A DNA stretch of 47,366 nucleotides from a virus (taxonomy: Duplodnaviria; Heunggongvirae; Uroviricota; Caudoviricetes). The notes beneath the pieces were generated by a model. It searched no databases, was not told the origin of the DNA, and was given only the letters and a program-made list of their open reading frames with translations. Below, piece after piece: positions 1 through 18,273 of this stretch (its first letter is position 1; every line of letters starts with the position of its first letter). The stretch is taken from the IMG/VR virus record IMGVR_UViG_2630968533_000004; one strand, given 5' to 3'. Made by a program: the position numbers and the translations under genes.

Positions 1-1
1 A

Positions 2-1297
2 TTAATTTTTCATTGCTTCGTTATGGGGCATGGTTGGGGCAAACTCGCTTAACTGTGTATTTAACAAAGCTACCTGTGCATTATTGTTTTCAGACATCCA
101 TTTTCCGTATACCTGAAATACCATTTGCGCATCTGCATGGCCCATCTGGTTTGCTATAAATGCCGGGTTAGCACCAGCTGTCAGCGACCAGCAGGCATAA
201 GTATGTCTCGACTGATATGATTTTCGATGGCGGAGTCCGGCACGTTTTATCGCTGCGTCCCACATCTGCCTTATTGAGTCAACGGTAAAATGGTCACCAT
301 AATTTTTTACTCTCGCTGACACTTCAGGTTGAAAAACAAAGGTGCATTTATGTTTTTCTGTTCTGCCATACTCTCTGAGGTGAACATCAATGATATGCTC
401 TTTGCTCAGTCTCGTTAATGTCATCTGACTCCGGAGAGCGTCGATTGCTGGCTTAATAAGATGAATGACCCGATTGGTTCCCGCCTGTGTTTTTGGTACC
501 GTGAAACGGTCTTTTGCTAAATTTCTCCTGATCATCATTGTTCCATTTTTCAGATCTATGTCCTCCCATCCAAGTGCACACAGCTCACCAGGGCGAACGC
601 CAGTATAAACAGAAACACACCATAAATTTTTGGCTTGCTGATTTCTGCACGCATCGATAAGACGGATGAATTCCTCCCGCGAAAGAGGATCCGGAATGGT
701 TCTTGATTCCTTTAATGGCGAGATCCCCTTAAACGGGTTATCTGCCAGGTAACCGTTATCAACACCAAACTGGAACACGGCGTTAAGATTTGTCATGTAA
801 TTATTTACAGTTACAGCCGATCTCCCTGGTTGTGTAACAATATAGTTACTTTTGGGGATCTGGTATCCAGTCAGTAGCTCTTTACGAACCTCCAGTAATT
901 TTTCTTTATTAATCGATGAGGCAAGATTTTTTTCACCGATTATGCTCAGGATATTTTTGATGACGGCACGGTATGTGTTGAGTGATGTTTTTGCGACTTC
1001 AGTTTCTTTCAGTGCCAGAAATTTTTCAGCCAGTTCTTTTATGGTTAAATCTTGTCGGGCCTCACCAAATTTTTCCAGATTGCGTGAGGAGGGAAACTGT
1101 TTTGCATAGTCGAAAACACCAGTTTTTATTGCGTAACAAACAGAGGCGCGTAGCTCACCTGCAACGCGCCTGTTTTTTGCTGTGTCAGGAACCCCCAGGT
1201 TTTCCCTGACTCTTACGCCTTTATAAACAAACCAGATACGTAATTTCCCTCCATGGTTTTCCACGCCTGTCGGATATTTCATTTCAACTTCTCTCAT
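2..1297 (-). CDS. int: Tyrosine-type phage integrase
   Basis: 431-aa ORF; C-terminal catalytic region RHRKSYQSRHTYACWSLTAGANPAFIANQMGH...VYGKW has the R..HxxR..Y layout of lambda-family integrases; sits at prophage edge next to an excisionase-like gene. Confidence 0.9.
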   Translation of the reverse strand: MREVEMKYPTGVENHGGKLRIWFVYKGVRVRENLGVPDTAKNRRVAGELRASVCYAIKTGVFDYAKQFPSSRNLEKFGEARQDLTIKELAEKFLALKETEVAKTSLNTYRAVIKNILSIIGEKNLASSINKEKLLEVRKELLTGYQIPKSNYIVTQPGRSAVTVNNYMTNLNAVFQFGVDNGYLADNPFKGISPLKESRTIPDPLSREEFIRLIDACRNQQAKNLWCVSVYTGVRPGELCALGWEDIDLKNGTMMIRRNLAKDRFTVPKTQAGTNRVIHLIKPAIDALRSQMTLTRLSKEHIIDVHLREYGRTEKHKCTFVFQPEVSARVKNYGDHFTVDSIRQMWDAAIKRAGLRHRKSYQSRHTYACWSLTAGANPAFIANQMGHADAQMVFQVYGKWMSENNNAQVALLNTQLSEFAPTMPHNEAMKN

Positions 1298-1316
1298 TAG
1301 TTAGTGTGGCTTTTAG

Positions 1317-1568
1317 TCAAGTAAGATGACGTCTTGGTCTTGCTGATGCCTGGCGCTCAATCCAGCGATCAATTTCTTCCAGGTTGTAAAAGCATGGACT
1401 GTTATCCCATGGCATACCGTCATGAGCGACATGCTTATATTCCCTTCCTTCCATAAACGATTTTTCCCGGGCCTTTTTTAACGTACCTTTTTTTATTCCT
1501 TTCAGCGCAATTAACTGCTCTTCGGATACCCATTTGCCGGGAGAGACAATCATGATTACTTCGCTCAT
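1317..1568 (-). CDS. Excisionase-like small protein
   Basis: 83-aa basic ORF immediately upstream of int on the same strand; size and position typical of prophage Xis. Confidence 0.6.
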   Translation of the reverse strand: MSEVIMIVSPGKWVSEEQLIALKGIKKGTLKKAREKSFMEGREYKHVAHDGMPWDNSPCFYNLEEIDRWIERQASARPRRHLT

Positions 1569-1640
1569 CGATTTCTTTATCTCTTACATCAGACGAGCGC
1601 CGGTTGCAGAATACCAGTCACAACCGGCGACAGTTGAACA

Positions 1641-4112
1641 TTAAGAATCAGCCTGACTCGGGATCAGTTTTTGCCAGATAGCTGAAACGTATTTTGCCTG
1701 GTAACGGGCGTCATCAAGTGCATTATGGCGCTCACCTTCGAATGGAATAGCCGTTCTGGCATCGAAGTCTATGGCTTTCCCCAGCTCAACGATTGTGCGT
1801 ACATCGCGATCGTTGTAGTAACGCCACGGGCAGGGGATCCCCTGCCGTTCGTATGAACGGCGCAAAATCGTGTTGTCGAAGTTGGCTCCATTTCCCCAGA
1901 CATGAACAAAAAATTCACCGGAGTTTTCGTCGATAAATTCCCGCAATTGTAACAGTGCATCATCTAACGGGATTTCATCGGTCATAATGGCAGATTGCGC
2001 TTCGCGTGATTGTTTAAGCCACCATTTAATGGTGTCCCGATCAATGACTCCGCCAGCAGTTTCCAGATCGATAGTCTTACTAAATTCCGGTCCCATATCT
2101 CCGGTTTGCGGATCGAAAAATATTGCACCTATTGAGATAATCGGGGCATCGGGATTTTTTCCCATGGTTTCAAGGTCGATCATCAGATGAATCCCCGCTC
2201 TGCTGGTGGATGTGAGATTATGATGACCGTTCACCTTAATTAAGGGATCTGACGCCTCGCCAGTTTCACTATCGCTGGCATGATGCTGATTGCTGCCAGT
2301 GTTCTCCTTGTGCTGATGCGCAGTGCCTTCCATTTCCTCCAGATCATTTTTCTGAACTTCAGGCTGATTCTCTCCATCGAATATTTCCTGGTATGTTGCG
2401 TCACCCATCACCGCACCACAATCAGGGCAGTTGCCGCCACCGCTCTGACCGCAGGCGGTGCAGATCTTTTCCGGTTCCTGTTGCACTACTGGTTCAGGTT
2501 GTTTCGTTTCTGGCTCGTTTTGTTGCGTATTTGGGCTGTTTTGTTCCGCTTTCTGGTCGTTCTGTTCCGTTTCTTGCTGGTTCTGGTTCACAGAATCGCG
2601 GGTCTGGATCCCCTTAATCCATTTCGGATCATTCGGGTCGCTAATCCCTTCAACAAATTCACCACGTGATACTGCAAGCAGTTCATCGGCGTCAGGCTGG
2701 CTGATATTGGCTGCCTGCATAATTTTGTTTACTTCGTCAGCGGTAACTTTTACTGACCCTGGTTGTGCGGTCGTGTCAGATGCACCAGTATTTTGTTGTG
2801 AACCTGAGTATGTACCGTTTTTGCGGGCGAAATATTCTTCTTTCGTGATTTCAGTAGCCCCAGCAGACAGCGCCTTATCCAGACCAGAAAGTTTATTTGC
2901 GCGACCGTATTTTTCGCCATCCTTGTCGGTGAAGAGGAAGTAGAACGGCCCCTCACGTTCTACAGATGGTTCGACTTCCACTTTGCATTCGGTTTTTTCG
3001 TTGTCTGGAATTGCCGTTTCCACTGCATCAGTTTCTGGTACTGGCGACGAGAGAGTATCAGTTGCGCTCTGATTTGTTCCTTCATCTTCAAACACGCCCT
3101 TTGTAGTCAGGTATTCAGTAATGTATTTGTTCAGTGCCACAGGGTCTTTGTGAATGTCGATCGGACGTTCACGGACAAGGCCAAAAATAGTCTGGCGGTC
3201 GTAGCGAAGGGCATCAGGCTGTTTGCGCATTGATGCCGAGATACGCTTCCAGTCTTCGCGGTCGTTGTCGATAACTTCATTTTTTGCCCAGCGATGGATG
3301 CTGCCGTCAATGTTTCCGGCATCCACATCACCAGGCCAGAGAGCGTAGGCCAGTTCGTCATCCAGTGTTTTCCATGTCTGCTTGTATTCGCGATGAATGG
3401 CAGCAATGACCGGGTTGATTTTTCCTGTTGAATTTTCAGTGTGCTGTTGATTGGCTCTGGCGCGGGCGAGATCAACAACAGACGTGTATTTTCCGGCTTC
3501 CTTGCGTTCACCTTCGCGACGTTTTTTCCAGATGCGCATCTCTGCCTGAATTTCGGGCCATTTGGCACCAGGCTTACATTTATGCTTAACCCACCCGATG
3601 GCATGCAGCTTAAGCTCCGGATACATAGCGTTAACTTCTGGCATTTTCATCAACGCTTCAACGATATGGCCGTCGAATGTTGCCATGTCTTCCTGCAACA
3701 ATTCCTGTGCGCTAATCACCATATCAACAGTGATGTTTTCACATGTGTCGAACTTAACCATGACAGCGTTCTGTACTTCAGGGGCTAGGTTGTCAAAAGT
3801 GACGTTCATCGGATCGGATTCAGTCTCGACCGGGACAAAGGAAGCAGACGCCTCATCCCAGCGGTTTTCCTGCATATATTCAGCATCCCAGGAATCGAGG
3901 GCAGGGCGGGGTATACCGGGTTTATCCTCGCAAACAAGAAATTTATAAGCGCAGTCCTGAGCAGCCGGATAATGTTCCAGGAATTGCCAGTGAAATTTTG
4001 CGCGGGCGCGACGTTCATCACCGGCTTCAATGGCAGTGGCTACAGCGACGGCACCTTCTTCCTTTATTGCCTGTTCGTCCGGAATGGCGGCGCAAATAAA
4101 GACTTTACTCAT
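1641..4112 (-). CDS. Large exonuclease with C-terminal DnaQ-like (DEDDh) 3'-5' exonuclease domain
   Basis: 823-aa ORF; C-terminus carries MIDLETMG (Exo I), WGNGANFDNTIL (Exo II) and HNALDDARYQAKY (Exo III, H-x4-D) motifs; central CTACGQSGGGNCPDCG zinc-ribbon-like motif and Q/N/E-rich low-complexity linker. Confidence 0.75.
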   Translation of the reverse strand: MSKVFICAAIPDEQAIKEEGAVAVATAIEAGDERRARAKFHWQFLEHYPAAQDCAYKFLVCEDKPGIPRPALDSWDAEYMQENRWDEASASFVPVETESDPMNVTFDNLAPEVQNAVMVKFDTCENITVDMVISAQELLQEDMATFDGHIVEALMKMPEVNAMYPELKLHAIGWVKHKCKPGAKWPEIQAEMRIWKKRREGERKEAGKYTSVVDLARARANQQHTENSTGKINPVIAAIHREYKQTWKTLDDELAYALWPGDVDAGNIDGSIHRWAKNEVIDNDREDWKRISASMRKQPDALRYDRQTIFGLVRERPIDIHKDPVALNKYITEYLTTKGVFEDEGTNQSATDTLSSPVPETDAVETAIPDNEKTECKVEVEPSVEREGPFYFLFTDKDGEKYGRANKLSGLDKALSAGATEITKEEYFARKNGTYSGSQQNTGASDTTAQPGSVKVTADEVNKIMQAANISQPDADELLAVSRGEFVEGISDPNDPKWIKGIQTRDSVNQNQQETEQNDQKAEQNSPNTQQNEPETKQPEPVVQQEPEKICTACGQSGGGNCPDCGAVMGDATYQEIFDGENQPEVQKNDLEEMEGTAHQHKENTGSNQHHASDSETGEASDPLIKVNGHHNLTSTSRAGIHLMIDLETMGKNPDAPIISIGAIFFDPQTGDMGPEFSKTIDLETAGGVIDRDTIKWWLKQSREAQSAIMTDEIPLDDALLQLREFIDENSGEFFVHVWGNGANFDNTILRRSYERQGIPCPWRYYNDRDVRTIVELGKAIDFDARTAIPFEGERHNALDDARYQAKYVSAIWQKLIPSQADS

Positions 4113-4204
4113 TTTGTTTTACCTCATTACAGATTTAAGGGTGAACAAATCCCTGCCATTGCTGGCATATAAGAATGAAATCGGATGTTTATTACGGAAC
4201 TGTT

Positions 4205-4396
4205 TTAAAGACCTGCCGGGATTTCGTTATTATCCTGGTGAATAACTTTATCGACCGGGTAACAGTTACCGGGAATTTTCTGTTCGGTTGCTGCAGTCAC
4301 ACACTCCTGCATTGTCCTGTGAACACTGACTGCAATATCAACTGGCTCTCCGGAAACAAGAAAAACTGTCAGAACAAGTGCAAATGCTGTATTCAT
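4205..4396 (-). CDS. ydfD: YdfD-like small lysis/membrane protein
   Basis: Internal Met of ORF 4205..4450 gives 63 aa MNTAFALVLTVFLVSGEPVDIAV... with hydrophobic N-terminus; start overlaps stop of the upstream dicB-like gene (ATGA); matches recalled Qin YdfD. Confidence 0.6.
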   Translation of the reverse strand: MNTAFALVLTVFLVSGEPVDIAVSVHRTMQECVTAATEQKIPGNCYPVDKVIHQDNNEIPAGL

Positions 4397-4581
4397 TGCC
4401 AGCATCCTTTTTGTATCGGACGTAAACGGGCCAACATTGAAAGAATGCATATTTTATTTAATAGCTTCCGTTCGTGTTTTCTCTTGTTAATGGCATCTTC
4501 AGTAAATACAGGGTTACTGATAGTGACACCAATTTCAAAACAACCTTCAGACGTATTAACGTTTGGTAATAACGTTTCCAT
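4393..4581 (-). CDS. dicB: Cell-division inhibitor DicB
   Basis: Internal Met of ORF 4393..4686 gives 62 aa METLLPNVNTSEGCFEIGVTISNPVFTEDAINKRKHERKLLNKICILSMLARLRPIQKGCWQ, near-identical to recalled E. coli DicB; lies directly downstream of DicF. Confidence 0.75.
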   Translation of the reverse strand: METLLPNVNTSEGCFEIGVTISNPVFTEDAINKRKHERKLLNKICILSMLARLRPIQKGCWQ

Positions 4582-4755
4582 TATCGCGTCCTCAACAATG
4601 AATTTTGTGATGCGGTGCCTGGTGCCTCCAGGTGACGTTAACCAGTTAACAATTAACGCCGGATACAGAGAATCCACCCATAACACTGTTTTTGGTTTTA
4701 ACTGTTCCGCGTGCGCTCAGCCGCATTCACCGCATCACAAAATTCACTTTAAAAA

Positions 4756-4808
4756 GGGCGGCAGAGCAGTCACGGAGTAAAACTGATACCGCCAAACGTC
4801 ACCAGAAA
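4756..4808 (-). ncRNA. dicF: DicF small RNA (53 nt) followed by U-tract
   Basis: Reverse complement of 4756..4808 reads TTTCTGGTGACGTTTGGCGGTATCAGTTTTACTCCGTGACTGCTCTGCCGCCC followed by TTTTTAA, matching the recalled DicF sequence; located between ydfA-like and dicB as in Qin. Confidence 0.8.
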
Positions 4809-5083
4809 ATTGATAACAGAGGGCGTTGCAGCGGGGTTGTCACTTAAGCGTATGGTCAACCTGACAACTCGGTGTCCTCAACGGGGAAGGAATAACCCCG
4901 CCATACTTACCGCCGCGCCATTTCGCGGGTTGCCACAACCGGAAGCGCACGGTCGAATTAAATTTAACGACACCGTACAGTGAGACGAACTTCGCCGTGC
5001 GCTTTCGTGTTGTATGCCTGCTTTTAACCACGTCAGGCGAGGTGGTATCCTTCTTATCCCGAATAACCAAGAAGGAAATCTAT

Positions 5084-5284
5084 ATGACTAAAGAAGAATT
5101 TGTCTCTTATATTTTTGATAAAACGGTTGAAATGTATGCCGCTACTTACGGGTCCTGTAATCCTCTGAATAAACCAGAGGGGAAAGATGATTTCGACAAA
5201 ATTTACCGCTTCTTGGAGGACCGCTATATCAAAAGGTTAGAGGACGCAGGGATCAAATCCCCAGTGAAGTCACCATTGTCCTGA
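5084..5284 (+). CDS. Hypothetical small protein (66 aa)
   Basis: ATG at 5084 preceded by GAAGGAAA RBS; AT-rich; opposite strand to the surrounding early-left operon. Confidence 0.4.
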   Translation: MTKEEFVSYIFDKTVEMYAATYGSCNPLNKPEGKDDFDKIYRFLEDRYIKRLEDAGIKSPVKSPLS

Positions 5285-5630
5285 GAACTTGCAGGACGTC
5301 ATGATCGTAACTTCCATCCAAACCGCGACGGCAAATTGCTTCTCGTATTACCGGAAGCAGTTCGCTGGAAATCTCGGTGCATATTTCACCTGATAATACG
5401 CCTGGCTCAAGTGAGAATATTGGTGAACTTACGGTCTTGGTCTCGACAGTTTCAGAGTCAGTGCCAACATTATAAAGCTCAACGAAAGCGGTCTTGATTT
5501 TCCGGGCCAGATCTTTTGCTGGCTCGCTTGCAATATCTTTCCCGATTTCTCGCAGCACAGAATGCAATGTATGAGCTGCTGTTTTCTGTACATCAGACGG
5601 TAAATCTTTAAATTCCATCGTCAGCCTCAT
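5253..5630 (-). CDS. Hypothetical early-left operon protein (possibly YdfB/YdfC-like)
   Basis: 125-aa ORF between ydfA-like gene and DicF on the operon strand; family assignment from position only. Confidence 0.45.
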   Translation of the reverse strand: MRLTMEFKDLPSDVQKTAAHTLHSVLREIGKDIASEPAKDLARKIKTAFVELYNVGTDSETVETKTVSSPIFSLEPGVLSGEICTEISSELLPVIREAICRRGLDGSYDHDVLQVLRTMVTSLGI

Positions 5631-5782
5631 CAGTCAGTGTTTCTGGCTAACCAGCAACGCGCGCCAGATTCGGTTTTAAACGTTTTGCTTTTGGTATATG
5701 TCATCGCGGTGAACGTACCGTCCTGGTTGGGGAACACGCCACATACCAGAGATTCGCTGTTGCCAAGATCGATAGTATCCAT
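5630..5782 (-). CDS. ydfA: YdfA-like small protein (50 aa)
   Basis: Internal Met of ORF 5630..5938 gives MDTIDLGNSESLVCGVFPNQDGTFTAMTYTKSKTFKTESGARCWLARNTD; first gene of the operon downstream of the dicA-proximal promoter region. Confidence 0.55.
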   Translation of the reverse strand: MDTIDLGNSESLVCGVFPNQDGTFTAMTYTKSKTFKTESGARCWLARNTD

Positions 5783-5897
5783 GCTGACCTCATTTCCCCT
5801 TAACGCCGGGGTAGCGGAACTGTTTGCTGAGAACACCGTGCGGTGTCTTGATGGAAGTAATTTAGTTTTCTCATTATTTTTCGTCAAGGTTTTTTGA

Positions 5898-5909
5898 TGA
5901 GAAAACTCA
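5898..5909. promoter_or_regulatory. Palindromic operator-like site TGAGAAAACTCA upstream of early-left operon
   Basis: 12-bp perfect palindrome in the sequence TTGATGAGAAAACTCAAGTATTGG, repeated almost exactly at 6433..6446. Confidence 0.5.
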
Positions 5910-5974
5910 AGTATTGGCGCAAGATAAAGCCAATACATTGAAATGTAAGGCTTTAAAATTTTGTGAAGGGATGA

Positions 5975-6382
5975 TTATTGATGCTTGTTGCGTTTGCGAG
6001 CCTCTAATAGCTCGGTGAACAGGCGATTAAAATTCTCAACGCGGGCGCGGAGTTCGCTGAGTTGTGCTTGTTGCTCTGATTTAGGAAGTGCGCGATACAA
6101 ACGCAGCATCTCTAACTCATCTTCCGATAAGTCTAAGGCACTATCGAGTGAAACAGGGGGAGCTGGTGTTTTGTCCTCGTCGCCAAACAGTATCCAGGTT
6201 GGTGAACATTGCAATACCTCGGCGAGGCGATGCAAATTTTGCCCGCGCGGGGCTGTATGGTCACTTTCCCATAATGAAATTGATGAGCCAGATACGCCAG
6301 CAGCTTTGCTTAAACCGTTTTGACTTAAGCCTACCTGCTTACGTCTTTCTCTAATGCGTTGACCTAAAGTTTTCTCGTTCAT
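5975..6382 (-). CDS. dicA: DicA-type HTH (XRE-family) repressor
   Basis: Internal Met of ORF 5975..6433 gives 135 aa MNEKTLGQRIRERRKQVGLSQNGLSKAAGVSGSSISLWESDHTAPRGQNLHRLAEVLQCSPTWILFGDEDK...; HTH motif plus C-terminal region resembling recalled DicA; divergent from a Cro-like gene. Confidence 0.85.
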   Translation of the reverse strand: MNEKTLGQRIRERRKQVGLSQNGLSKAAGVSGSSISLWESDHTAPRGQNLHRLAEVLQCSPTWILFGDEDKTPAPPVSLDSALDLSEDELEMLRLYRALPKSEQQAQLSELRARVENFNRLFTELLEARKRNKHQ

Positions 6383-6432
6383 ATTTAGATATCTTAATAA
6401 CCCTTGACTTGAGATTCCTTGAGTGATTAGCA

Positions 6433-6446
6433 TTGAGAAAACTCAA
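6433..6446. promoter_or_regulatory. Palindromic operator-like site TTGAGAAAACTCAA in dicA-dicC intergenic region
   Basis: Sits 14 bp upstream of the dicC ATG, between the divergent repressor genes; same core as 5898..5909. Confidence 0.5.
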
Positions 6447-6459
6447 TATTGGAGGTGCG

Positions 6460-6687
6460 ATGTTTAAATCAGACGTAATTAATTTTTACGGTACGAAAGC
6501 CAAAGTAGCGAAAGCTGCTGGCGTTGACCCATCTGCTGTTTCTCAATGGCAAGAGCTGGTTCCTGAAGGTCGCGCGATGCGTCTACAGGAGGCATCTGGC
6601 GGCGAGCTTCTGTATGATCCCAAGGTTTATGACGAATATCGTAAGACGAAGCGGGCGGGGCGGTTGAACAATGAAAATCACTCCTGA
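6460..6687 (+). CDS. dicC: DicC-like (Cro-like) regulator
   Basis: 75-aa protein MFKSDVINFYGTKAKVAKAAGVDPSAVSQWQ...; GGAGG RBS 5 nt upstream; divergent from dicA. Confidence 0.75.
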   Translation: MFKSDVINFYGTKAKVAKAAGVDPSAVSQWQELVPEGRAMRLQEASGGELLYDPKVYDEYRKTKRAGRLNNENHS

Positions 6688-7192
6688 ACAGGCTCGTGAG
6701 GCTCTGGATGCCTGGATATGTCGACCAGGAATGACACAGGAGCAGGCGACGATATTAATCACTGAAGCATTCTGGGCTTTGAAAGAGCGCCCGAACATCG
6801 ATGTTCAGCGTGTCACAGATGAAGGTGGCGCGGTTGATCAGCGAGCGCTTGGCGTTAATCGAGTGAAGATATTCGAACGCTGGAAGGCTATCGACACTAG
6901 GGATAAGCGTGAAAAGTTCACGGCGCTAGTGCCTGCAATTATGGAGGCTATCCGGATTAATGATTTCAGGTTGTATCGTGAAATTAGTGACGGAAAAAGC
7001 ATCACGTACATGATCGCCGGGTTAAACAAAGAATATGGCGATGTGGTGGAGTCCGGACTGCTTTTTGCTGATCCTGCCGTAGTGGATCGTGAAACTGACG
7101 AACTTATAGAAAAAGCAATTGCTTTCAAACTTGCGTATCGACAGCAATACCAACAAAAAGCTGGATGGAATTATGAGCCTTCTTTTTGCTGA
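6671..7192 (+). CDS. YdaT-like regulatory protein
   Basis: 173-aa ORF in the CII-equivalent position after the Cro-like gene; segment RVKIFERWKAIDTRDKREKFTALVPAIMEAI resembles the recalled YdaT family pattern. Confidence 0.5.
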   Translation: MKITPEQAREALDAWICRPGMTQEQATILITEAFWALKERPNIDVQRVTDEGGAVDQRALGVNRVKIFERWKAIDTRDKREKFTALVPAIMEAIRINDFRLYREISDGKSITYMIAGLNKEYGDVVESGLLFADPAVVDRETDELIEKAIAFKLAYRQQYQQKAGWNYEPSFC

Positions 7193-8138
7193 ACGCCCAC
7201 TGGTTATAAACACACAGCTTGCGATGAAGATTGGCTTAAATGAAGCCATTGTGTTGCAGCAGTTGCATTACTGGTTGAGAGATACCAATTCCGGCATGGA
7301 ATGTGATGGTGTTCGCTGGATTTACAACACAACGGAACAATGGCTGGAACAGTTCCCATTCTGGTCAGAGTCAACGTTAAAGCGCGCGTTTGCAAGTCTG
7401 AAAACGCTGGGGCTTTTGCGTTGTGAAAAGCTCAATAAATCAAAGCGCGATATGACCAATTTCTACACGATCAACTACGGGAGCGAGCTTTTAGATGGTG
7501 GCAAATTGAGCGAATCCATCGGTTTAAAATGCGCCGCTCCATCAGGTCAAAATGACACGATGGAAGAGGTCAAAATGAAACGCTCCATTGGTTCAAAACG
7601 ACCCAATGTCATCGGGTCAAAATGGCCTGATGATCTTACAGAGAATACAACAGAGATTACTACAGAGAATAAAAACACTTTTCGTCCGGAAGCTTCGCAA
7701 CCGGACCCGCAGACCGCTGAACAGGATTTTTTAACCCGGAACCCCGACGCGGTTGTGTTTAGTGCGAAAAAACGCCAGTGGGGTAGCAGGGAGGATTTGG
7801 CGTGTGCGCAGTGGATTTGGGGGCGGATCGTGAACCTTTACGAACAGGCTGCCAGCGACGATGGAGAGATCATGCGACCAAAAGAGCCTAACTGGACAGC
7901 CTGGGCCAATGACGTGCGCACAATGCGGATGCTGGATGGCAGAAGCCACAGACAAATTTGCGAAATGTTTGGTCGGGTACAGCGAGATCAATTCTGGGTA
8001 AAAAACATCATGAGCCCGTCAAAACTCCGCGAAAAATGGGACGAACTGGTCATCCGCCTGGGACGTTCACCTGTACAGCGTTGTATGAATCATATTTCTG
8101 AACCGGATACAGAAATTCCGCCTGGTTTCAGAGGATAA
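7173..8138 (+). CDS. Replication initiation / replisome organiser protein (DnaT-like C-terminus)
   Basis: N-terminus MSLLFAERPLVINTQLAMKIGLNEAIVLQQLHYWL is winged-helix-like; C-terminus WANDVRTMRMLDGRSHRQICEMFGRVQRDQFWV is DnaT-like; gene contains iterons. Confidence 0.6.
   Translation: MSLLFAERPLVINTQLAMKIGLNEAIVLQQLHYWLRDTNSGMECDGVRWIYNTTEQWLEQFPFWSESTLKRAFASLKTLGLLRCEKLNKSKRDMTNFYTINYGSELLDGGKLSESIGLKCAAPSGQNDTMEEVKMKRSIGSKRPNVIGSKWPDDLTENTTEITTENKNTFRPEASQPDPQTAEQDFLTRNPDAVVFSAKKRQWGSREDLACAQWIWGRIVNLYEQAASDDGEIMRPKEPNWTAWANDVRTMRMLDGRSHRQICEMFGRVQRDQFWVKNIMSPSKLREKWDELVIRLGRSPVQRCMNHISEPDTEIPPGFRG
7521..7625. repeat. Origin-like iterons (5 copies of about GGTCAAAATG, roughly 23-bp spacing) plus downstream AT-rich ACAGAGA repeats
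   Basis: ggtttaaaatg, ggtcaaaatga, ggtcaaaatga, ggttcaaaacga, ggtcaaaatgg read directly; followed by ttacagagaatacaacagagattactacagagaataaaaac; lies inside the replication gene like lambda ori inside O. Confidence 0.55.
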
Positions 8139-8178
8139 GTTTTGATTTCAGGTCATGAGGTAATTTTAAGGGGGACTT

Positions 8179-8580
8179 GTGGCAAAAGTTTTTACACAAG
8201 AAGAGCGGGAAAAAATTAAAGGGCAGGTGGTGGAACTCGTGCGCCAGAGCGGTCGTGAGACGTTACGGCAACTGGAAGCTAAAACAGGTGCGACTAGATA
8301 TCTGATGAGCGTTCTTGCCAGAGAGCTGGTAGCCAGTGGCGATGTATACAACTCCGGCTACGGGTTATTCCCGTCTGAACAGGCGCGTAAGGACTGGCAA
8401 AACGCCCGCAAAAAACTATCGAGGGCAAAGGTGAAGAAAACAGCTGTGGTTGATCCGGACCTTATCTGGTCGTTACCTGATGGAGAAATACGTCGCTACG
8501 ACAGTCGCCTAAACATAATCTGTCGCGAGTGCCGGATGAGTGAAGTTATGCAGCGCATACTGGCATTTTATCAGGGATAA
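8179..8580 (+). CDS. Hypothetical protein
   Basis: 133-aa ORF with GTG start preceded by AAGGGGGA RBS; basic; function unknown. Confidence 0.5.
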   Translation: MAKVFTQEEREKIKGQVVELVRQSGRETLRQLEAKTGATRYLMSVLARELVASGDVYNSGYGLFPSEQARKDWQNARKKLSRAKVKKTAVVDPDLIWSLPDGEIRRYDSRLNIICRECRMSEVMQRILAFYQG

Positions 8581-8779
8581 TGTTAGGTATTTTAGACGTT
8601 ACTAGATTAAAAAGCATTAGTTCAGGAGTGAATTGACATTCTCATTTTTCATGGCACAGGGTAGATCTGGCGTGGTTGTCCGCTTTGTGCCAGAAGCGGA
8701 CGTTACAATACAATCACTATGCTAATGCGCATTGATATGTGATATAACAATAATCAACCGTTCAAAAAGGAGCATTTAT

Positions 8780-9802
8780 ATGAGCAGGATGATAATTGAT
8801 ACAAATATTCTTTACTCACTAGTTGGTCTGTCGACAAACCAAAAAATAATTAACTCCCCTATAGATCAATTCAAATTATCCATTACGACACCATCACTCA
8901 TAGAAGTGATCTCTAAATATTGCAATGACTTAGGGGCTGTAAAAAAATGCATTAGCCCAATCATAAACGGAAATATTGAACTAATTAGCATTGGTCATAC
9001 TCCAATCTCAAATGAATTTCTTTATAGGTTGCATTTTTCAGACAAAATAGACGAAGTAAAAGATATTATTGATAATGTTAGAGCACTAAAAATATCTAGA
9101 GAGGCTGAGTTTTATAGGTTCATACTCATACTGGTTGTCTCTGGTTTGTTTGAGGTTATTAGAGAAGATGGATACAAGTTTGATAACGATGTACAAAATC
9201 AAAGTCAACTTAGTCTTGTGCAGACTCTACTTGAATCTAATATGGAATTAATTTTAGACTTCTTTAAAGATGAGTTGCGGAATGGATATATTAATGGAAA
9301 TGAGCAGCAATCAGCTTTGAAAGCTTTTGAAACCATGCTTATCGGACTCCTACATGCTTTTCATGTCAACTATCATATGATTAAAACTGACACAGTTAAC
9401 ATTTCCGGAAGCCAAGACAGACTCAAAAATCTGTATGATAGTATAAAAAATGATAATTTTGATAAAAAGTTTAAAAAATATATGGAGAATCCAATATCCC
9501 TTGCCTGCAAAAAAAAACACGAATCAGTAGTTGATAACTACCTGAAAGAAATGGAGGAGGGGATTTCTGGCGCTCGTGGGCTTACTAAGAATTCGTTGAG
9601 CTTTCTAATGAGCAAGGTTGAGGATGCATATAAAAATGGTCGTAAATTACGAAAAAATGACATATTTGACTTTCTAATAGTTATTTCTCTAAATATGCCA
9701 GACACTTTGATTTTAACACTTGATAAAGGTTTTTTAAAAGACCTTAAAGATCTTCACCCTAACAGCTATAAAAAGTGTCTGGATTTCGGTTTTGTAAATT
9801 AA
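8780..9802 (+). CDS. AT-rich cargo protein, candidate PIN-like nuclease fold (possible defence / abortive-infection gene)
   Basis: 340 aa from ATG at 8780 with AAGGAG RBS; N-terminus MSRMIIDTNILYSLVG resembles the start of PIN domains (catalytic Asp in DTN), C-terminus DTLILTLDKGF resembles a PIN C-terminal strand; K/N/I-rich composition, visibly lower GC than flanking phage genes. Confidence 0.65.
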   Translation: MSRMIIDTNILYSLVGLSTNQKIINSPIDQFKLSITTPSLIEVISKYCNDLGAVKKCISPIINGNIELISIGHTPISNEFLYRLHFSDKIDEVKDIIDNVRALKISREAEFYRFILILVVSGLFEVIREDGYKFDNDVQNQSQLSLVQTLLESNMELILDFFKDELRNGYINGNEQQSALKAFETMLIGLLHAFHVNYHMIKTDTVNISGSQDRLKNLYDSIKNDNFDKKFKKYMENPISLACKKKHESVVDNYLKEMEEGISGARGLTKNSLSFLMSKVEDAYKNGRKLRKNDIFDFLIVISLNMPDTLILTLDKGFLKDLKDLHPNSYKKCLDFGFVN

Positions 9803-10873
9803 AAATATATTGATGTAAAATAAAACGCACCCACATTTAACTTAGCTAGACTATATCCTTCAATTATTCTATCTGCTTTTTGTTAAATGTGGGGTTGCAG
9901 ATGTTACGAGTCAATTAAATTTGCAAGTCAGGTAGAATTGATAAGAATTGCAATACGAATCCGTGAACATTAATGCTAACGCTAAGTATACGAAAGATAT
10001 TGTAAATATACTTCTTTTTTTGTTTTTAAGTTCTTTTATTTGACAGTAGTTCCATCATTCAATTGCGTATTATCTTCCAATGCCAGTGACACTCCCTCAT
10101 TATGAGAGGATTGTGGTAATCAAAAGAAAAATTAATATCACGCCAAGAATATTCGAAACCAACCCTATGGTGTTAAGTCCTGGTGATGTCATTTAGTTTG
10201 CTCTAGGTTTATTATTCAGAAAGCAAAGAATATTCGTTAAATTATTATGTTAGCTTTAATTATTAAAAAACATGTTAATTATCATCAAATGAGCACTTAT
10301 CATCATTTTAGTCAAAGAGGTAGTGAGTATTCATTCTGGATCATAACTGCCTTCCTGTTTACGCTAGTGTTTTTTAAAGTCGATGTCCGCTCATCGCTCA
10401 AAGCGGACTAGAAGGTTAGCTTGTGTCGGACTTTGCGTATTAAATGACTAGTGGTTGAGCCCCATTTCCACAGAAAAAATCAGAGAAACTATACCCAATA
10501 GTTGTATTGAATCACTGACGAGACAGCCTCATATTCATCAGGACTGGTGTACGTCCAATACAGGAGGTTGTGGTGCTGGTTCTCAAATGTGCGCTGGCTA
10601 TTACGGCTGTAATGGCGATTTATTGTCTTGCTATTGTTCTTATGGATCGCCTTTCTGACTGATTTCACATTGGCGAGGTAACGGTAGTTAAGTAGAATGG
10701 CTGCGGGTGCTTGAGGCTATCTGCCTCGGGCATGAACACCAACGGCAGATAGAGAAAAGCCCCAGTTAACATTACGCGTCCTGCAAGACGCTTAACATTA
10801 ATCTGAGGCCAATTTCATGCTAGACACATGTAGGTTAGCCTCTTACGTGCCGAAAGGCAAGGAGAAGCAGGCT

Positions 10874-11029
10874 ATGAAGCAGCAAAAGGCGATGTTAATC
10901 GCCCTGATCGTCATCTGTTTAACCGTCATAGTGACGGCACTGGTAACGAGGAAAGACCTCTGCGAGGTACGAATCCGAACCGGGCAGACGGAGGTCGCTG
11001 TCTTCACAGCTTACGAACCTGAGGAGTAA
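10874..11029 (+). CDS. hokD: Hok/Gef-family type I toxin
   Basis: 51 aa MKQQKAMLIALIVICLTVIVTALVTRKDLCEVRIRTGQTEVAVFTAYEPEE matches recalled HokD/RelF; ORF extends upstream in-frame (10817). Confidence 0.85.
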   Translation: MKQQKAMLIALIVICLTVIVTALVTRKDLCEVRIRTGQTEVAVFTAYEPEE

Positions 11030-11097
11030 GAGACCCGGCGAGGGAGAAATCCCTCGCCACCTCTGATGTGGCAGGCATCCTCAACGCACCCGCACTT

Positions 11098-11122
11098 AAC
11101 CCGCTTCGGCGGGTTTTTGTTT
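11098..11122 (+). terminator. Rho-independent terminator after hok
   Basis: CCGCTTCGGCGG hairpin followed by GTTTTTGTTTTTATTTT. Confidence 0.6.
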
Positions 11123-11245
11123 TTATTTTCAACGCGTTTGAAGTTCTGGACGGTGCCGGAATAGAATCAAAAATACTTAAGTAGCGCGCAGGGATAAGAG
11201 GGATGGTCCCTTAAAGGGGAGAGCTAATTATCCGGAAGGATTCTG

Positions 11246-11497
11246 ATGATGAACATCGAAGAACTGCGTAAAATTTTTTGTGAAGATGGCCTCTATGCGG
11301 TGTGCGTTGAAAATGGAAATCTTGTTAGTCATTACCGCATTATGTGTTTGCGAAAGAATGGGGCTGCGTTAATTAATTTTGTGGATGGTCGAGTGACAGA
11401 CGGATTTATCTTGCGCGAAGGTGAGTTTGTCACTTCATTACAGGCACTGAAAGAGATCGGAATAAAAGCAGGCTTTTCAGCTTTTGCAGAAGAATAA
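11246..11497 (+). CDS. rem: Rem-like small protein
   Basis: 83-aa MMNIEELRKIFCEDGLYAVCVENGN...; size and position after hok as in Qin. Confidence 0.55.
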   Translation: MMNIEELRKIFCEDGLYAVCVENGNLVSHYRIMCLRKNGAALINFVDGRVTDGFILREGEFVTSLQALKEIGIKAGFSAFAEE

Positions 11498-11563
11498 ACT
11501 CATCTACAATCTTGCGCGGGGCTGAACTCCCGCTGAGTAACACCGTGCCACCGGAGAAAACCG

Positions 11564-11842
11564 ATGGCACGCAACGTAAAATATTACAATTCTGATAATT
11601 CGCCCGTTCTTGCCTGCACGCACGAGCGGTATTCTCACGCATTCAAGTCTGAATGGTTCCAACACCCTCCATGCACTGAAGAGCAGGCTGAATGGATAAT
11701 TCAGTGTTACCGCAGGCGCGGATACGAGGTTAAGAAAGCCCTTAGTCTCGACTACCGTCACTGGATAATCTCAGTCAGATTGCCTTACTCCGAACGCCCA
11801 CCACGTGCGTCCCGCACTTTCCAGCAACGGATCTGGAGGTAA
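11564..11842 (+). CDS. Hypothetical protein
   Basis: 92-aa ORF, Cys/His/Trp-rich; overlaps the 5' end of the next ORF. Confidence 0.4.
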   Translation: MARNVKYYNSDNSPVLACTHERYSHAFKSEWFQHPPCTEEQAEWIIQCYRRRGYEVKKALSLDYRHWIISVRLPYSERPPRASRTFQQRIWR

Positions 11843-12893
11843 CGTGCGGGTATTACTTAGACCTGTTCTGGTGCCTGAGCTTGGGCTGGTGGTCCTTAAG
11901 CCGGGCCGTGAATCCATACAGATATTTCATAATCCTCGAGTGCTGGTGGAACCGGAACCAAAAAGCATGCGTAATCTGCCATCCGGAGTCGTTCCTGCCG
12001 TTGGCCAGCCGCTGGCGGAAGACAAAACATTGCTGCCGTTTTTTAGTAACGAACGGGTGATTCGTGCTGCTGGCGGCGTTGGCGCATTGTCTGACTGGCT
12101 ATTACGTCATGTTACATCCTGCCAGTGGCCTAATGGAGATTACCATCACACTGAAACAGTCATTCACCGTTATGGTACCGGCGCAATGGTGTTGTGTTGG
12201 CACTGCGACAACCAACTGCGTGACCAGACATCGGAATCACTGGAGCTGCTTGCTCAACAAAATCTGACAGCATGGGTGATTGACGTCATCCGTCACGCAA
12301 TAAGCGGTACGCAGGAGCGGGAATTATCTTTGGCTGAATTATCCTGGTGGGCGGTCTGCAATCAGGTGGTGGATGCACTACCTGAGGCTGTATCGCGTCG
12401 TTCGCTGGGATTACCAGCGGAAAAAATCTGCTCGGTGTACCGCGAAAGCGACATCGTACCGGGAGAGCAGACCGCCACCAGCATACTGAAACAGCGCACA
12501 AAAAATCTTGCGCCGCTGCCTCACGCCCACCAGCAACAGAACCCACCACAGGAAAAGACGGTGGTCAGCATTGCCGTTGATCCTGAGTCTCCGGAATCTT
12601 TCATGAAACGACCTAAACGTCGCCGCTGGGTTAACGAGAAATACAAACGCTGGGTGAAGACACAGCCGTGTGCGTGTTGTGGTAAGCCAGCCGACGATCC
12701 CCATCACCTGATTGGTCATGGTCAGGGCGGAATGGGGACAAAATCTCACGATATTTTCACGCTACCGCTGTGTCGGGAGCATCACAACGAGCTTCATGCG
12801 GATCCTCTGGCGTTCGAAGAAAAGCATGGTTCTCAGGTTGATTTAATTTTTCGTTTTCTTGATCACGCCTTTGCAACTGGCGTGCTTGGGTAA
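11805..12893 (+). CDS. DUF968-like protein with HNH-type motif
   Basis: C-terminus CACCGKPADDPHHLIGHGQGGMGTKSHDIFTLPLCREHHNELH; GTG start at 11805, an alternative ATG at 11967 would remove the overlap with the upstream ORF. Confidence 0.65.
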   Translation: MRPALSSNGSGGNVRVLLRPVLVPELGLVVLKPGRESIQIFHNPRVLVEPEPKSMRNLPSGVVPAVGQPLAEDKTLLPFFSNERVIRAAGGVGALSDWLLRHVTSCQWPNGDYHHTETVIHRYGTGAMVLCWHCDNQLRDQTSESLELLAQQNLTAWVIDVIRHAISGTQERELSLAELSWWAVCNQVVDALPEAVSRRSLGLPAEKICSVYRESDIVPGEQTATSILKQRTKNLAPLPHAHQQQNPPQEKTVVSIAVDPESPESFMKRPKRRRWVNEKYKRWVKTQPCACCGKPADDPHHLIGHGQGGMGTKSHDIFTLPLCREHHNELHADPLAFEEKHGSQVDLIFRFLDHAFATGVLG

Positions 12894-12905
12894 AAGAGGT
12901 GACTG

Positions 12906-13262
12906 ATGCTCATAGATTTGGTTTTACCTTACCCGCCGACGGTGAACACTTACTGGCGACGCCGTGGCAGCACATATTTTATCTCGGAGGAGGGAAAGCG
13001 TTATCGCCGGGCTGTGGCGCTTATTGTTCGCCAGCAGCGGCTGAAATTAAGCCTGTCCGGAAGGCTGGCGATAAAGGTGATTGCAGAGCCACCGGATAAG
13101 CGTCGTCGCGACCTGGACAATATCCTGAAAGCACCGCTGGATGCGCTGACGCATGCGGGAGTGTTAATGGACGATGAGCAGTTTGATGAAATCAATATCG
13201 TTCGTGGTCAGCCAGTATCTGGCGGACGTCTGGGGGTGAAGATTTACCCCATAATGCATTAA
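12906..13262 (+). CDS. rusA: RusA-family Holliday junction resolvase
   Basis: 118 aa; PDKRRRDLDNILKAPLDALTHAGVLMDDEQ matches the RusA catalytic region; AAGAGG RBS. Confidence 0.85.
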   Translation: MLIDLVLPYPPTVNTYWRRRGSTYFISEEGKRYRRAVALIVRQQRLKLSLSGRLAIKVIAEPPDKRRRDLDNILKAPLDALTHAGVLMDDEQFDEINIVRGQPVSGGRLGVKIYPIMH

Positions 13263-13276
13263 GAGCAGGTCAAAAA

Positions 13277-14098
13277 ATGAAACTGGAAGATTTACCGAAA
13301 TACTACTCCCCAAAATCCCCTGGCCTGACCGATGCATCGGCCTCAACGTCAAAAGATGCGCTGAGTATCACTGATGTGATGGCCGCGCAGGGCATGACAC
13401 AGAATCGGGCTGAGATGGGTTTTTCTGCGTTCCTGGGGAAAATGGGCATCAGTATGAATGACAGGGCGCGGGCAACAGAATTACTGGCAGATTATGCACT
13501 CAGTCGGTGCGATCGTGTGGCGGCGTTGAGAAAACTTCCGGCAGAAATAAAACCGGTAGTGATGCGCATTATGGCTTCGTACGCTTTTGAGGATTATGCC
13601 CGCAGCGCAGCGAGTAAAAAGCAGTGCCCTTGTTGCTATGGGGAAAAATTTATTGAAAGCATAGTTTTTACAAACAAGGTCCAGTATCCGGATGGTAAGC
13701 CGCCGGTATGGGCAAAGTGTACGAAAGGTGTGTATCCGTCTTACTGGGAAGAATGGAAAAAAGTCAGGGAGGTGGTAAAAGTTGCCTGTCCGGAGTGTGG
13801 CGGAAAGGGTGAGGTTTCCACCGCCTGTAAGGATTGCCGTGGGCGTGGTGTCGCCATTCATCGTGAAGAGTCGGTAAAACGTGGTATGCCTGTTGTCAGA
13901 GACTGCCAGCGTTGTGGTGGTCGTGGCTATGAAAGACTACCATCAACGGAGGCATTTAATGCTATATGCGAGGTGACAAACCAGATAACACGCGCGTCAT
14001 GGGAAAAAACAGTTAAGAAATTCTATGATGCGCTGGTGACCCGGTTTGATATTGAAGAAGCATGGGCTGAGCGGCAGTTAAAAAAGGTAACTAGGTAA
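13277..14098 (+). CDS. Late-gene antiterminator Q
   Basis: 273 aa with Cys-rich zinc-binding segments (CPCCYG, CPECGGKGEVSTACKDCRGRG, CQRCGGRG); immediately upstream of pR'-like promoter, terminator and tRNAs. Confidence 0.8.
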   Translation: MKLEDLPKYYSPKSPGLTDASASTSKDALSITDVMAAQGMTQNRAEMGFSAFLGKMGISMNDRARATELLADYALSRCDRVAALRKLPAEIKPVVMRIMASYAFEDYARSAASKKQCPCCYGEKFIESIVFTNKVQYPDGKPPVWAKCTKGVYPSYWEEWKKVREVVKVACPECGGKGEVSTACKDCRGRGVAIHREESVKRGMPVVRDCQRCGGRGYERLPSTEAFNAICEVTNQITRASWEKTVKKFYDALVTRFDIEEAWAERQLKKVTR

Positions 14099-14103
14099 CA
14101 AGG

Positions 14104-14131
14104 TTGATTTTTCCGGAATCTGTGGTAAATT
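14104..14131 (+). promoter_or_regulatory. Late promoter pR'-like (TTGATT - 16 bp - TAAATT)
   Basis: -35/-10 hexamers read directly, just downstream of Q stop; resembles lambda pR' TTGACT/TAAATT. Confidence 0.55.
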
Positions 14132-14178
14132 CGTCATAATGATGGGCTTTTTATGCCTGACGTTAGAAGAGTTTCTAC

Positions 14179-14203
14179 AACCCGCCGCCGAGCGGGTTTT
14201 TTA
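14179..14203 (+). terminator. tR'-like rho-independent terminator
   Basis: AACCCGCCGCCGAGCGGGTTTTTTATT hairpin plus U-tract about 50 nt after the promoter. Confidence 0.6.
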
Positions 14204-14241
14204 TTGCGGAATTAATTACGGACCGTTATTATTCTGCTCCC

Positions 14242-14317
14242 GGCCCTTTAGCTCAGTGGTGAGAGCGAGCGACTCATAATCGCCAGGTCGCTGGTTCAAA
14301 TCCAGCAAGGGCCACCA
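14242..14317 (+). tRNA. tRNA-Ile2 (anticodon CAU, lysidine type) or Met
   Basis: 76-nt cloverleaf folded by hand: acceptor GGCCCTT/AAGGGCC, D-stem GCTC/GAGC, anticodon loop CTCATAA, T-arm GCTGG-TTCAAAT-CCAGC, CCA end; close to recalled E. coli ileX. Confidence 0.85.
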
Positions 14318-14417
14318 TCACAAACCGCCATTAGCTTATCAGGAAGAGCAGACGACACGATAACAGGGTTGTTGGTGCGGGGGCGGGTCCCCGATGGCGG
14401 TCCATTATCGGTATTCA

Positions 14418-14494
14418 GCGTTGTTAGCTCAGCCGGACAGAGCAATTGCCTTCTAAGCAATCGGTCACTGGTTCGAATCCAGTACAGCGCGCCA
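14418..14494 (+). tRNA. tRNA-Arg (anticodon UCU)
   Basis: Acceptor GCGTTGT/ACAGCGC, anticodon stem ATTGC/GCAAT with loop CTTCTAA, T-loop GGTTCGAATCC, CCA end. Confidence 0.85.
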
Positions 14495-14604
14495 TATTCA
14501 TTCTTCCAGATTCCTTCCGGCAGAGCCTTATACTGGAATATACCTGGCTCAGGATATTGTTGAAAACATAATATGTTTGTCAAAAATAAAAGTTCTGTTA
14601 AGTA

Positions 14605-15920: not shown

Positions 15921-16070
15921 TATTTATTGTTTTGTAATAAACGGTTTCGGCTTAGGTTTGTTCTGACACAACTACGGCACTGAGCTAAATTTAGCGGATA
16001 GTCAGCTCTGAGCCAGTGGCGGACGTAACAACTACTATTGCTGAGATTTTAATGGATTGAGGAGCAAGAA

Positions 16071-16933: not shown

Positions 16934-16937
16934 TCCA

Positions 16938-17249: not shown

Positions 17250-18273
<1,024 letters not shown>

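Follow-up and report, generated by a model that had tools for sequence, protein, structure and literature searches.

The DicF-DicB-YdfD module of an apparently complete mEp460-type prophage at the Qin site, with a predicted STnc100-family RNA fold between dicF and dicB

The closest described system is the Qin prophage's dicBF operon in Escherichia coli K-12, where ydfABC-dicF-dicB-ydfDE stand under the control of DicA, DicC and Rem. A likeness of another kind is offered by lambda Kil, likewise an early-left-operon division inhibitor of a lambdoid phage, which is made from the PL operon and blocks FtsZ ring formation during lytic development. Kil acts directly on FtsZ in a ZipA-dependent manner, without MinC and without an sRNA partner; the protein is unrelated to DicB and is set apart from it by this description. 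In K-12, the dicBF promoter is repressed by DicA and relieved by the antirepressor Rem (Ragunathan et al, 2023, PMC10448788), DicF regulates ftsZ, xylR and pykA (Balasubramanian et al, 2016, PMC5069750), and DicB acts via MinC to block division as well as ManYZ-dependent entry of phage DNA (PMC6832061). DicF occurs in K-12 as a 53-nt terminated form and as a 72-nt form with a 3' end made by RNase III (PMC5069750). The 5' end of the 53-nt form is an RNase E cut, and a 190-nt DicF species begins at an RNase III cut approximately 137 nt upstream of DicF (PMC10448788).

Besides Qin, the dicF-dicB locus has been described on large lambdoid prophages in EHEC, and a 2016 survey of approximately 2,000 phage genomes contained no DicB or DicF (Balasubramanian et al, 2016, PMC5069750). 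More recently, the functional phage mEp460_ev081 was reported to carry dicB, dicF, dicAC and rem (Ragunathan et al, 2023, PMC10448788). In our own searches the locus matched 4736 of 5426 complete E. coli genomes at a median of two places per genome, with 6–8 matching places in each of the O157 and O111 genomes. It also matched 60 phage records, eight of them over at least 80% of the 951-nt query, and in the record of phage Tritos DicF is annotated. That DicF, DicB and YdfD occur together in an intact phage, which the first-pass annotation of the DNA studied here had put forward, is correct and already known, as the same phage lineage is described in PMC10448788. As stated, this finding adds little, given that dicBF in a functional phage is in print and the locus is near-ubiquitous in E. 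coli. The sequence does provide a natural, apparently inducible host-phage pair in which the timing of DicF and DicB production, and their use to the phage, could be studied.

The DNA analyzed here is a 47,366-nt stretch (hereafter the window; IMG/VR record IMGVR_UViG_2630968533_000004). We are highly confident that positions 4205–4808 lie midway in the early-left operon (dicBF, equivalent to PL) of what is apparently a complete mEp460-type prophage at the Qin site, acting through the mechanism proposed below. Escherichia phage mEp460_ev081 (LR597641.1) has the 4205–4808 stretch with 100% identity, and its genome runs collinear with the window at 99.9% identity for 1–8704 and 10385–20686, 99.7% for 20728–27995, 97% for 28162–38148 and 99.9% for 43947–46091; in sum, about 28 kb align at 99.7–99.9% identity and another 10 kb at 97%. 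Completeness was assessed by translating the annotated CDS of mEp460_ev081 and searching them against the window. Full-length, stop-free counterparts were present for integrase, excisionase, an 823-aa exonuclease, repressor, Cro, a cII-like protein, replication proteins, RusA and Q, for holin, lysozyme, Rz, both terminase subunits and portal, and for the head, connector, tail tube, tape measure and tail tip proteins and J. The essential gene classes were 97–100% identical to this phage, which was isolated as virions. Exceptions among the tested CDS were one swapped accessory gene and a swapped tail-fibre end; in addition, the tail-chaperone T frame stops 3 codons early relative to the mEp460_ev081 record. 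In coordinates, the parts exchanged between the two are the accessory gene at 8705–10384, the J C-terminus at 38149–39123 and the side tail fibre at 40247–43946. The swapped fibre end encodes a 792-aa fibre, whose N-domain is of the prophage tail-fibre type, and a 346-aa protein carrying an S74 chaperone domain, and is plausibly a fibre module. The complete lysis, head and tail modules that had been claimed for this prophage are hence borne out as far as can be read from the genes, and the window is apparently a complete mEp460-type lambdoid prophage. It differs from mEp460_ev081, an isolated temperate phage, in being an integrated copy.

On its right the prophage borders host ydfJ, with a junction whose sequence is the same as that between Qin and ydfJ in K-12; the left junction is situated outside the window, beyond position 1. 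The core shared with the mEp460_ev081 attP extends up to ATGGATTTC. The prophage is integrated at the 5' end of ydfJ, which is Qin's site in K-12. K-12 Qin aligned to the window in eight collinear blocks, comprising int; ydfE'-ydfD-dicB-dicF; ydfA/dicBp; dicC-ydfX; hokD-rem-ydfU; lysis-cspI-gnsB (two adjacent blocks); and pinQ-ydfK-ynfT-ydfJ. Because the blocks are collinear and Qin lacks the replication, head and tail regions in this alignment, Qin appears as a deletion remnant and the window as apparently a complete example of the kind of phage from which Qin derived. The contrast drawn by the first-pass annotation between defective Qin as carrier of DicF and DicB and a complete prophage in the window agrees with the alignment. 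The two share the att site and the ydfJ junction as well as the order ydfA, DicF, spacer, dicB, ydfD, exonuclease, int, but only the window has an intact exonuclease and int together with xis and the replication, head and tail genes, and in the window ydfB/ydfC are exchanged for a 121-aa ORF and a convergent 66-aa ORF. The EHEC O157:H7 prophages CP-933O/M/P resemble the window in that they carry multi-copy dicF loci on lambdoid prophages other than Qin; they have been described as defective, whereas the prophage in the window matches an isolated phage.

The operon begins with a ydfA-like gene (5630–5782, minus strand; DUF1391, PF07151, 94 bits). Directly upstream of it is a region homologous to dicBp, 5651–5856 being 91.7% identical to K-12 ydfA/dicBp. 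A DicA-like (P22 C2-type) repressor of 135 aa (5975–6382, minus strand; HTH_3, 56.9 bits) and a DicC/Cro-like regulator of 75 aa (6460–6687, plus strand; PF14549 P22_Cro, 59.3 bits) were 57% and 70% identical to K-12 DicA and DicC, respectively. Since the repressor is only 57% identical to DicA and diverges mostly in its N-terminal HTH half, the immunity specificity probably differs from that of Qin. The antirepressor Rem (11246–11497, plus strand) was identical to K-12 Rem in 80 of 83 aa (96%). Downstream of ydfD, in the same operon, lies the 823-aa exonuclease (1641–4112, minus strand; PF16473, 225 bits; phrog_2082 over its full length), a full-length counterpart of ydfE, which in K-12 is a pseudogene adjoining IS2E. 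Intact xis (1320–1568, minus strand) and int (2–1297, minus strand) form the distal end of the operon; Arm-DNA-bind_2 and Phage_integrase domains were found in the int/xis region, whose products were 99.8–100% identical to phage proteins over their full length. The corresponding K-12 gene intQ is a pseudogene.

DicF itself is located at 4756–4808 on the minus strand. Rfam RF00039 (DicF) matched at 4807–4756 with 76.7 bits (gathering score 48 bits) over model positions 1–52 of 52, and in a direct comparison all 53 bases of 4808–4756 were the same as K-12 dicF (b1574). The seed and target-pairing sequence is thereby unchanged from the characterized K-12 RNA. A T5 tract at 4755–4751 follows directly 3' of DicF, as does TTTTT in K-12, and the intrinsic terminator hairpin is formed by GGCGGUAUCAG and CUGCUCUGCCGCC ahead of the TTTTT. 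The first-pass annotation had placed DicF, with its U-tract, at exactly these coordinates, and the comparison with K-12 that it called for gave zero substitutions across DicF, seed regions included. The regions flanking DicF, in which processing takes place in K-12, were 97.6–98.9% identical to K-12. Upstream, a conserved 5' leader (precursor region; 4809–4972, minus strand) was identical to K-12 at 160 of 164 positions, and homology to Qin resumes abruptly at its far boundary, 4972, which is 164 nt upstream of DicF. Transferred to the window, the RNase III cut reported for the 190-nt species falls near 4945, in GTGCGCTTCC, so that the homology boundary at 4972 is just upstream of the mapped site; the RNase E cut corresponds to 4808. 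The fold of the leader region (4750–5000) was not better than that of shuffled sequences (z -1.4), so that we propose no structure around the upstream RNase III site. A 51-aa plus-strand ORF over dicF (4692–4847) was treated as spurious.

The dicB gene (4393–4581, minus strand) encodes a 62-aa cell-division inhibitor that is MinC-dependent in K-12. Its frame is open without stops and its product matched PF05358 end to end (positions 1–62 of 62, 126.3 bits against a cut-off of 27 bits) as well as phrog_1251. Identity to K-12 was 54/62 at the amino acid level and 175/189 at the nucleotide level, the lowest value in the locus when set beside the leader, DicF and the spacer. The phage record annotates a 97-aa 'DicB' with a GTG start at 4686, which we rejected, as that frame would cross the structured spacer and the 62-aa frame already matches the Pfam model from end to end. 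The gene that follows, ydfD (4205–4396, minus strand), encodes a 63-aa DUF1482 protein, a lysis protein in K-12, which matched PF07358 over its full length (88 bits, cut-off 25 bits) and was identical to K-12 YdfD in 59 of 63 aa. As in K-12, the stop codon of dicB and the start codon of ydfD share the sequence ATGA, which fits translational coupling of the two genes. A full 62-aa DicB and an overlapping YdfD-like frame had both been claimed on sight of the sequence, and both hold; a disrupted dicB frame, which had been named as evidence against the claim, was looked for and the frame was found open. The functions that had been cited for DicF and DicB are documented for K-12 (PMC5069750, PMC6832061).

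Between dicF and dicB lies a structured spacer (structured part 4597–4748, minus strand). The 174-nt spacer folded with a minimum free energy of -72.5 kcal/mol (z -6.6), and none of 200 shuffled sequences did as well. The closing stem P1 has 21 bp, formed by 4748–4728 with 4617–4597, and its 3' arm ends 8 nt before the Shine-Dalgarno sequence of dicB. P1 is followed by GAAU, the P2 hairpin, a strand a (CAGUUAA), a variable hairpin, the P4 hairpin and P5, the last being a CCUGG-AGGCA-CCAGG hairpin inside 4634–4614. The loop of P4, UUAACUG, is predicted to pair with strand a in a 7-bp pseudoknot. Compared with K-12, 172 of 174 positions were identical, and both changes turn a C-G pair of P1 into U.G.

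Searched alone, the spacer was matched by Rfam RF02076 (STnc100) with 39.8 bits and an E-value of 1.7e-7, over model positions 21–154 only, which is short of the STnc100 gathering score of 47 bits; likewise, STnc100 was absent at the Rfam gathering threshold from the DicF-linked copies in two further loci (L024 and L031). A canonical STnc100 copy is present in the same window, where Rfam matched 15191–15381 (core 15218–15329). Inside this match stands CACCGGGAGGCACCCGGCACC, the only other copy in the window of one hairpin of the spacer and its flanks, CACCTGGAGGCACCAGGCACC; it differs from the first by a compensatory stem change, and by chance 0 such matches would be expected. The 21-nt motif CACCNGGAGGCACCNGGCACC has exactly two occurrences in the window, where 0 were expected. 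The spacer and the canonical copy thus have in common the core fold, GGUGAAU and CACCNGGAGGCACCNGGCACC of the STnc100/PasD family, and the spacer contains the elements of the core architecture in order: P1, GGUGAAU, P2, a junction helix, P4 and P5 of the form CCNGG-AGGCA-CCNGG. They differ in that the spacer is without the 5' and 3' flanks of STnc100 and follows an sRNA terminator within the early-left operon, whereas the canonical copy lies in the late region after Q and tRNAs.

To compare the cores directly, we used a core-only covariance model, R1, built from 56 diverse cores without a DicF-type terminator upstream. R1 matched the spacer over positions 1–118 of 118 with 82.7 bits, a value that is not fully independent as the training set includes a few cores resembling the P4 region of the spacer. 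In comparison, the canonical copy and the K-12 spacer scored 87.4 and 76.2 bits, and a P1-like plasmid has three copies with scores of 84.7, 46.3 and 44.5 bits. A motif scan of public collections returned at least 240 loci. Among the matches listed, those in the genome collections were mostly from Enterobacterales and in prophage-like contexts, and STnc100-type elements often stood in tandem arrays with tRNAs and isrI. Across 123 distinct aligned copies the five nested helices were paired in 95.8% of cells, against 37–45% with slid partners, and 22 of 25 pairs had changed on both sides among these copies; as the alignment was fitted to the model, both counts lean toward the structure.

The pseudoknot, in which the strand after the junction helix that follows P2 pairs with the P4 loop, is proposed here and is absent from the Rfam STnc100 model. 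Both of its strands are unpaired and out of register in the model alignment, and it was scored per sequence instead of by column. Across the family, the mean within-sequence helix was 6.47 bp, represented by 88 distinct helix sequences, compared with 5.08 ± 0.11 bp for cross-sequence pairing and 4.82 ± 0.10 bp for shuffled loops. The models thus place the spacer as an STnc100-family structured RNA with five helices and a predicted pseudoknot. Other identities were considered and set aside. Among 4227 Rfam families only STnc100 was returned, which leaves no tRNA-like or known ribozyme assignment, and ARAGORN found only two true tRNAs, neither of them the core. A factor-independent antiterminator resembling HK022 put, which would read through the DicF terminator, was dropped, as put is a two-hairpin RNA and thus unlike the five-helix core of about 120 nt. 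STnc100 has been treated as a base-pairing sRNA in published suggestions (PMC12370729). Our literature search found no published link between DicF and STnc100: both names occur in three papers, one of which, PMC12370729, mentions DicF once and in an unrelated sentence, and a 2026 preprint relating PasD to STnc100 is without mention of DicF or dicB.

The closing stem sets the DicF-linked cores apart. P1 had 21 bp in 6 of 9 distinct DicF-linked copies and 10 or 15 contiguous pairs in the other three, whereas among the distinct copies elsewhere it had 7–12 bp, with two exceptions. The reported 3' end of 72-nt DicF (PMC5069750) maps about 19 nt past the 53-nt end, near 4737, which is inside the P1 5' arm. 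The long P1 may therefore be an RNase III substrate that would uncouple DicF from the dicB mRNA when transcription reads through. In viral contigs, the spacer's close relatives were each preceded by a DicF paralogue with the same terminator stem, T-tract and AAAGTGAATTTTGTGATGC linker and a different 5' seed, and ORFs other than dicB follow these cores. Because the paralogues keep the terminator and linker while seeds and downstream ORFs differ, the conserved unit in these sequences is a composite of a DicF-type sRNA and a core, with variable cargo. We tentatively extend this to a wider reading, which we regard as possible but somewhat short of probable, in which the spacer is a pseudoknotted STnc100/PasD member fused behind a DicF-type sRNA as a mobile cassette with interchangeable seed and cargo, its P1 having been lengthened to 21 bp for separation of sRNA from mRNA by RNase III.

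The mechanism proposed for the operon combines several kinds of evidence. The sequences, frames, synteny, gene completeness, Qin site identity and the family and structure of the spacer come from the present analysis; experiments in K-12 supply the targets, the mechanism via MinC/ManYZ, control by Rem and DicA, and the nuclease cuts. We infer that the K-12 facts apply unchanged in the phage, that P1 serves as an RNase III substrate, and that the module has its role in lytic growth. In the lysogen, the DicA-like repressor would keep the promoter upstream of the ydfA-like gene off, until repression is lifted by Rem or spontaneously, as shown for Qin. One transcript would then run through the ydfA-like gene, the 121-aa ORF, DicF, the spacer, dicB, ydfD, the exonuclease gene, xis and int. 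DicF could be freed by termination at its own hairpin and U-tract or by nuclease cuts, with an RNase III cut approximately 137 nt upstream and an RNase E cut that sets the 5' end of the 53-nt form; on read-through transcripts, RNase III would also cut the 21-bp P1 and thereby part DicF from the dicB mRNA. DicF, which binds Hfq in K-12, would pair with the ftsZ, manX, xylR and pykA mRNAs, DicB would take MinC to the septum so that Z-rings are blocked, and DicB would also block ManYZ-dependent entry of lambda-type DNA. YdfD would be lytic when over-produced. In its native role the module likely halts division of the host and keeps competing phages out during early lytic growth.

Three other explanations were weighed against this account. 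The prophage could look complete and yet be defective or domesticated, the module being kept because the host gains from it through phage exclusion or stress tolerance, as has been suggested for Qin. Host-side retention was argued by Balasubramanian et al (2016, PMC5069750), and the module, usually present in more than one copy among the 4736 of 5426 E. coli genomes, is far commoner than any single active phage; the left attachment site moreover lies outside the window, and the T frame ends 3 codons early. We nevertheless consider domestication unlikely, given that every essential gene class is full-length and 97–100% identical to a phage isolated as virions, that int and xis are intact, and that the locus is found in 60 deposited phage genomes. 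A second proposal is that DicB has diverged, its altered C-terminus no longer engaging MinC/ZipA, so that the module would act mainly via DicF and YdfD. It would fit that, of the 8 residues out of 62 that differ from K-12, five are within the last 9 (RLRLMPKGCAQ to RLRPIQKGCWQ), and that in nucleotide sequence dicB shows the lowest conservation of any block in the locus. However, the full-length Pfam match at 126 bits, the occurrence of the same allele, 100% identical, in the isolated phage mEp460_ev081 and the evident maintenance of the frame make such a loss of function quite improbable, somewhat more so than domestication.

For the spacer, the corresponding alternative is that its likeness to STnc100 reflects chance or convergent hairpins and that it is merely an RNase III stem-loop. 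The score below the curated gathering value would fit this, and the DicF-linked spacers are near-invariant, so that no covariation can be obtained from those alone. Several observations nevertheless make it very hard to sustain: the E-value of 1.7e-7 was obtained against all Rfam families, CACCNGGAGGCACCNGGCACC is found twice in the window against none expected, and the five helices and the pseudoknot recur in the same order and spacing. Moreover, the P1 and P5 stems show compensatory differences relative to the canonical and P1-plasmid copies, and intermediate TA-type relatives with variable middle hairpins exist. On this evidence we hold coincidental resemblance to be highly improbable and retain the assignment of the spacer to the STnc100 family.

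The spacer result may matter more than the presence of the module, as the RNase III site long known to lie 3' of DicF thereby gains a defined, conserved and tertiary-looking fold. The result also connects DicF with the uncharacterised STnc100/PasD family, with DicF-like sRNAs of different seeds travelling with the fold, and leads to testable hypotheses on sRNA biogenesis and dicB expression. If the tentative cassette reading is true, the 1990 RNase III observation would be tied to a defined and widespread RNA fold that is also found in the tRNA tandem arrays of late operons across Enterobacterales, which would hint that the fold generally serves the processing or stability of phage transcripts and does not act as a base-pairing sRNA.

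The part of the operon ahead of dicF differs from Qin in gene content. The place of K-12 ydfB/ydfC is occupied by the 121-aa ORF (5253–5618, minus strand), which is identical in mEp460_ev081 and matched phrog_33007 over its full length, with zero Pfam matches. The 66-aa ORF (5084–5284, plus strand), annotated in mEp460_ev081 and matching phrog_34441 over its full length, likewise had zero Pfam matches; it converges on the operon and overlaps the end of the 121-aa ORF. This replacement and the convergent ORF inside the operon could alter transcription into dicF.

The structured spacer RNA between dicF and dicB shares its core fold with a canonical STnc100 RNA encoded elsewhere in the window (15191–15381, plus strand; Rfam, 114 bits), in which the pseudoknot has 7 bp (AUCAGCG/UGCUGGU). 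Upstream of this canonical copy lie Q (13277–14098), tRNA-Met(CAT) (14242–14317) and tRNA-Arg(TCT) (14418–14494). Among loci from public collections that contain the spacer hairpin motif, DicF paralogues were found at a minimum of eight (L014, L022, L044, L055, L058, L065, L069 and L145), comprising viral contigs and Shigella flexneri. In these paralogues the terminator stem and T-tract are unchanged and the 5′ seed differs; behind each come the AAAGTGAATTTTGTGATGC linker and an STnc100-type core whose closing stem is long, and the ORFs further downstream are not dicB.

STnc100-type cores also occur in tandem arrays of up to 6–7 per locus (L205, L190, L166, L199, L016, L081 and others). These arrays, in which tRNAs and isrI lie between the cores, belong to prophage-like regions of Pantoea, Enterobacter, Citrobacter, Kosakonia, Klebsiella and other hosts. 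On the P1-like E. coli plasmid pSX4-3 (L003), three cores (822–923, 2438–2555 and 3036–3152) and four tRNA genes are intermixed upstream of lpa/pacA. Of these cores, the second (2438–2555) contains a 52-nt stretch identical to the dicF–dicB spacer, and its closing stem shows compensatory changes relative to that of the spacer. A separate match was seen in the 254-kb record of Aeromonas phage AP1 (MT713136.1), where 247 nt (249906–250152) that carry no annotation are 98.4% identical to E. coli dicF plus spacer; this stretch could reflect either horizontal transfer or an assembly contaminant.

In the deposited phage record DicF itself is not annotated. Two ORFs that are annotated there look like artefacts: a 'DicB' of 94–97 aa (4393–4686, minus strand), which starts within the spacer structure, and an ORF of 51 aa on the strand opposite dicF (4692–4847, plus strand). 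Within the early-left operon, the position of K-12 ydfB/ydfC is taken by a 121-aa ORF (5253–5618, minus strand; phrog_33007) and a convergent 66-aa ORF (5084–5284, plus strand; phrog_34441) that overlaps its end. Both phrogs are of unknown function, and a Pfam search returned no match for either ORF. Lying antisense inside the operon, the 66-aa ORF could influence transcription that continues into dicF.

Three window segments are absent from the collinear temperate phage mEp460_ev081. In 8705–10384 a 356-aa ORF, with no match in a Pfam search, replaces a 449-aa reverse-strand gene; 38149–39123 encodes a different receptor-binding end of J; and 40247–43946 holds a different side-tail-fibre set, including a protein with an S74 chaperone domain (42552–43592). 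The mEp460_ev081 tfa is reduced here to its final 36 codons (43948–44055), adjoining the Pin invertase gene (44156–44746). The frame of tail assembly chaperone T (29925–30242, plus strand) ends three codons before that of mEp460_ev081, with one stop inside the tblastn match, which is probably harmless because T is made as a G–T frameshift fusion.

Some further loci have counterparts in the cryptic K-12 prophage Qin. A hok/sok-type toxin–antisense locus (10705–11026, plus strand; Rfam sok, 115 bits), containing a mok/hok ORF (10874–11026, plus strand), is the equivalent of Qin hokD. Downstream of the lysis cassette, a cold-shock protein gene (18638–18847, plus strand) with a cspA-type thermoregulator 5′ UTR (18479–18896, plus strand; Rfam, 109 bits) is placed like cspI in Qin and is followed by gnsB (19525–19695). 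In the late region, two adjoining ORFs with TolA C-terminal domains (15492–15920 and 16071–16466, both plus strand) lie between STnc100 and the holin; a possible accessory function for them is interference with Tol-dependent uptake.
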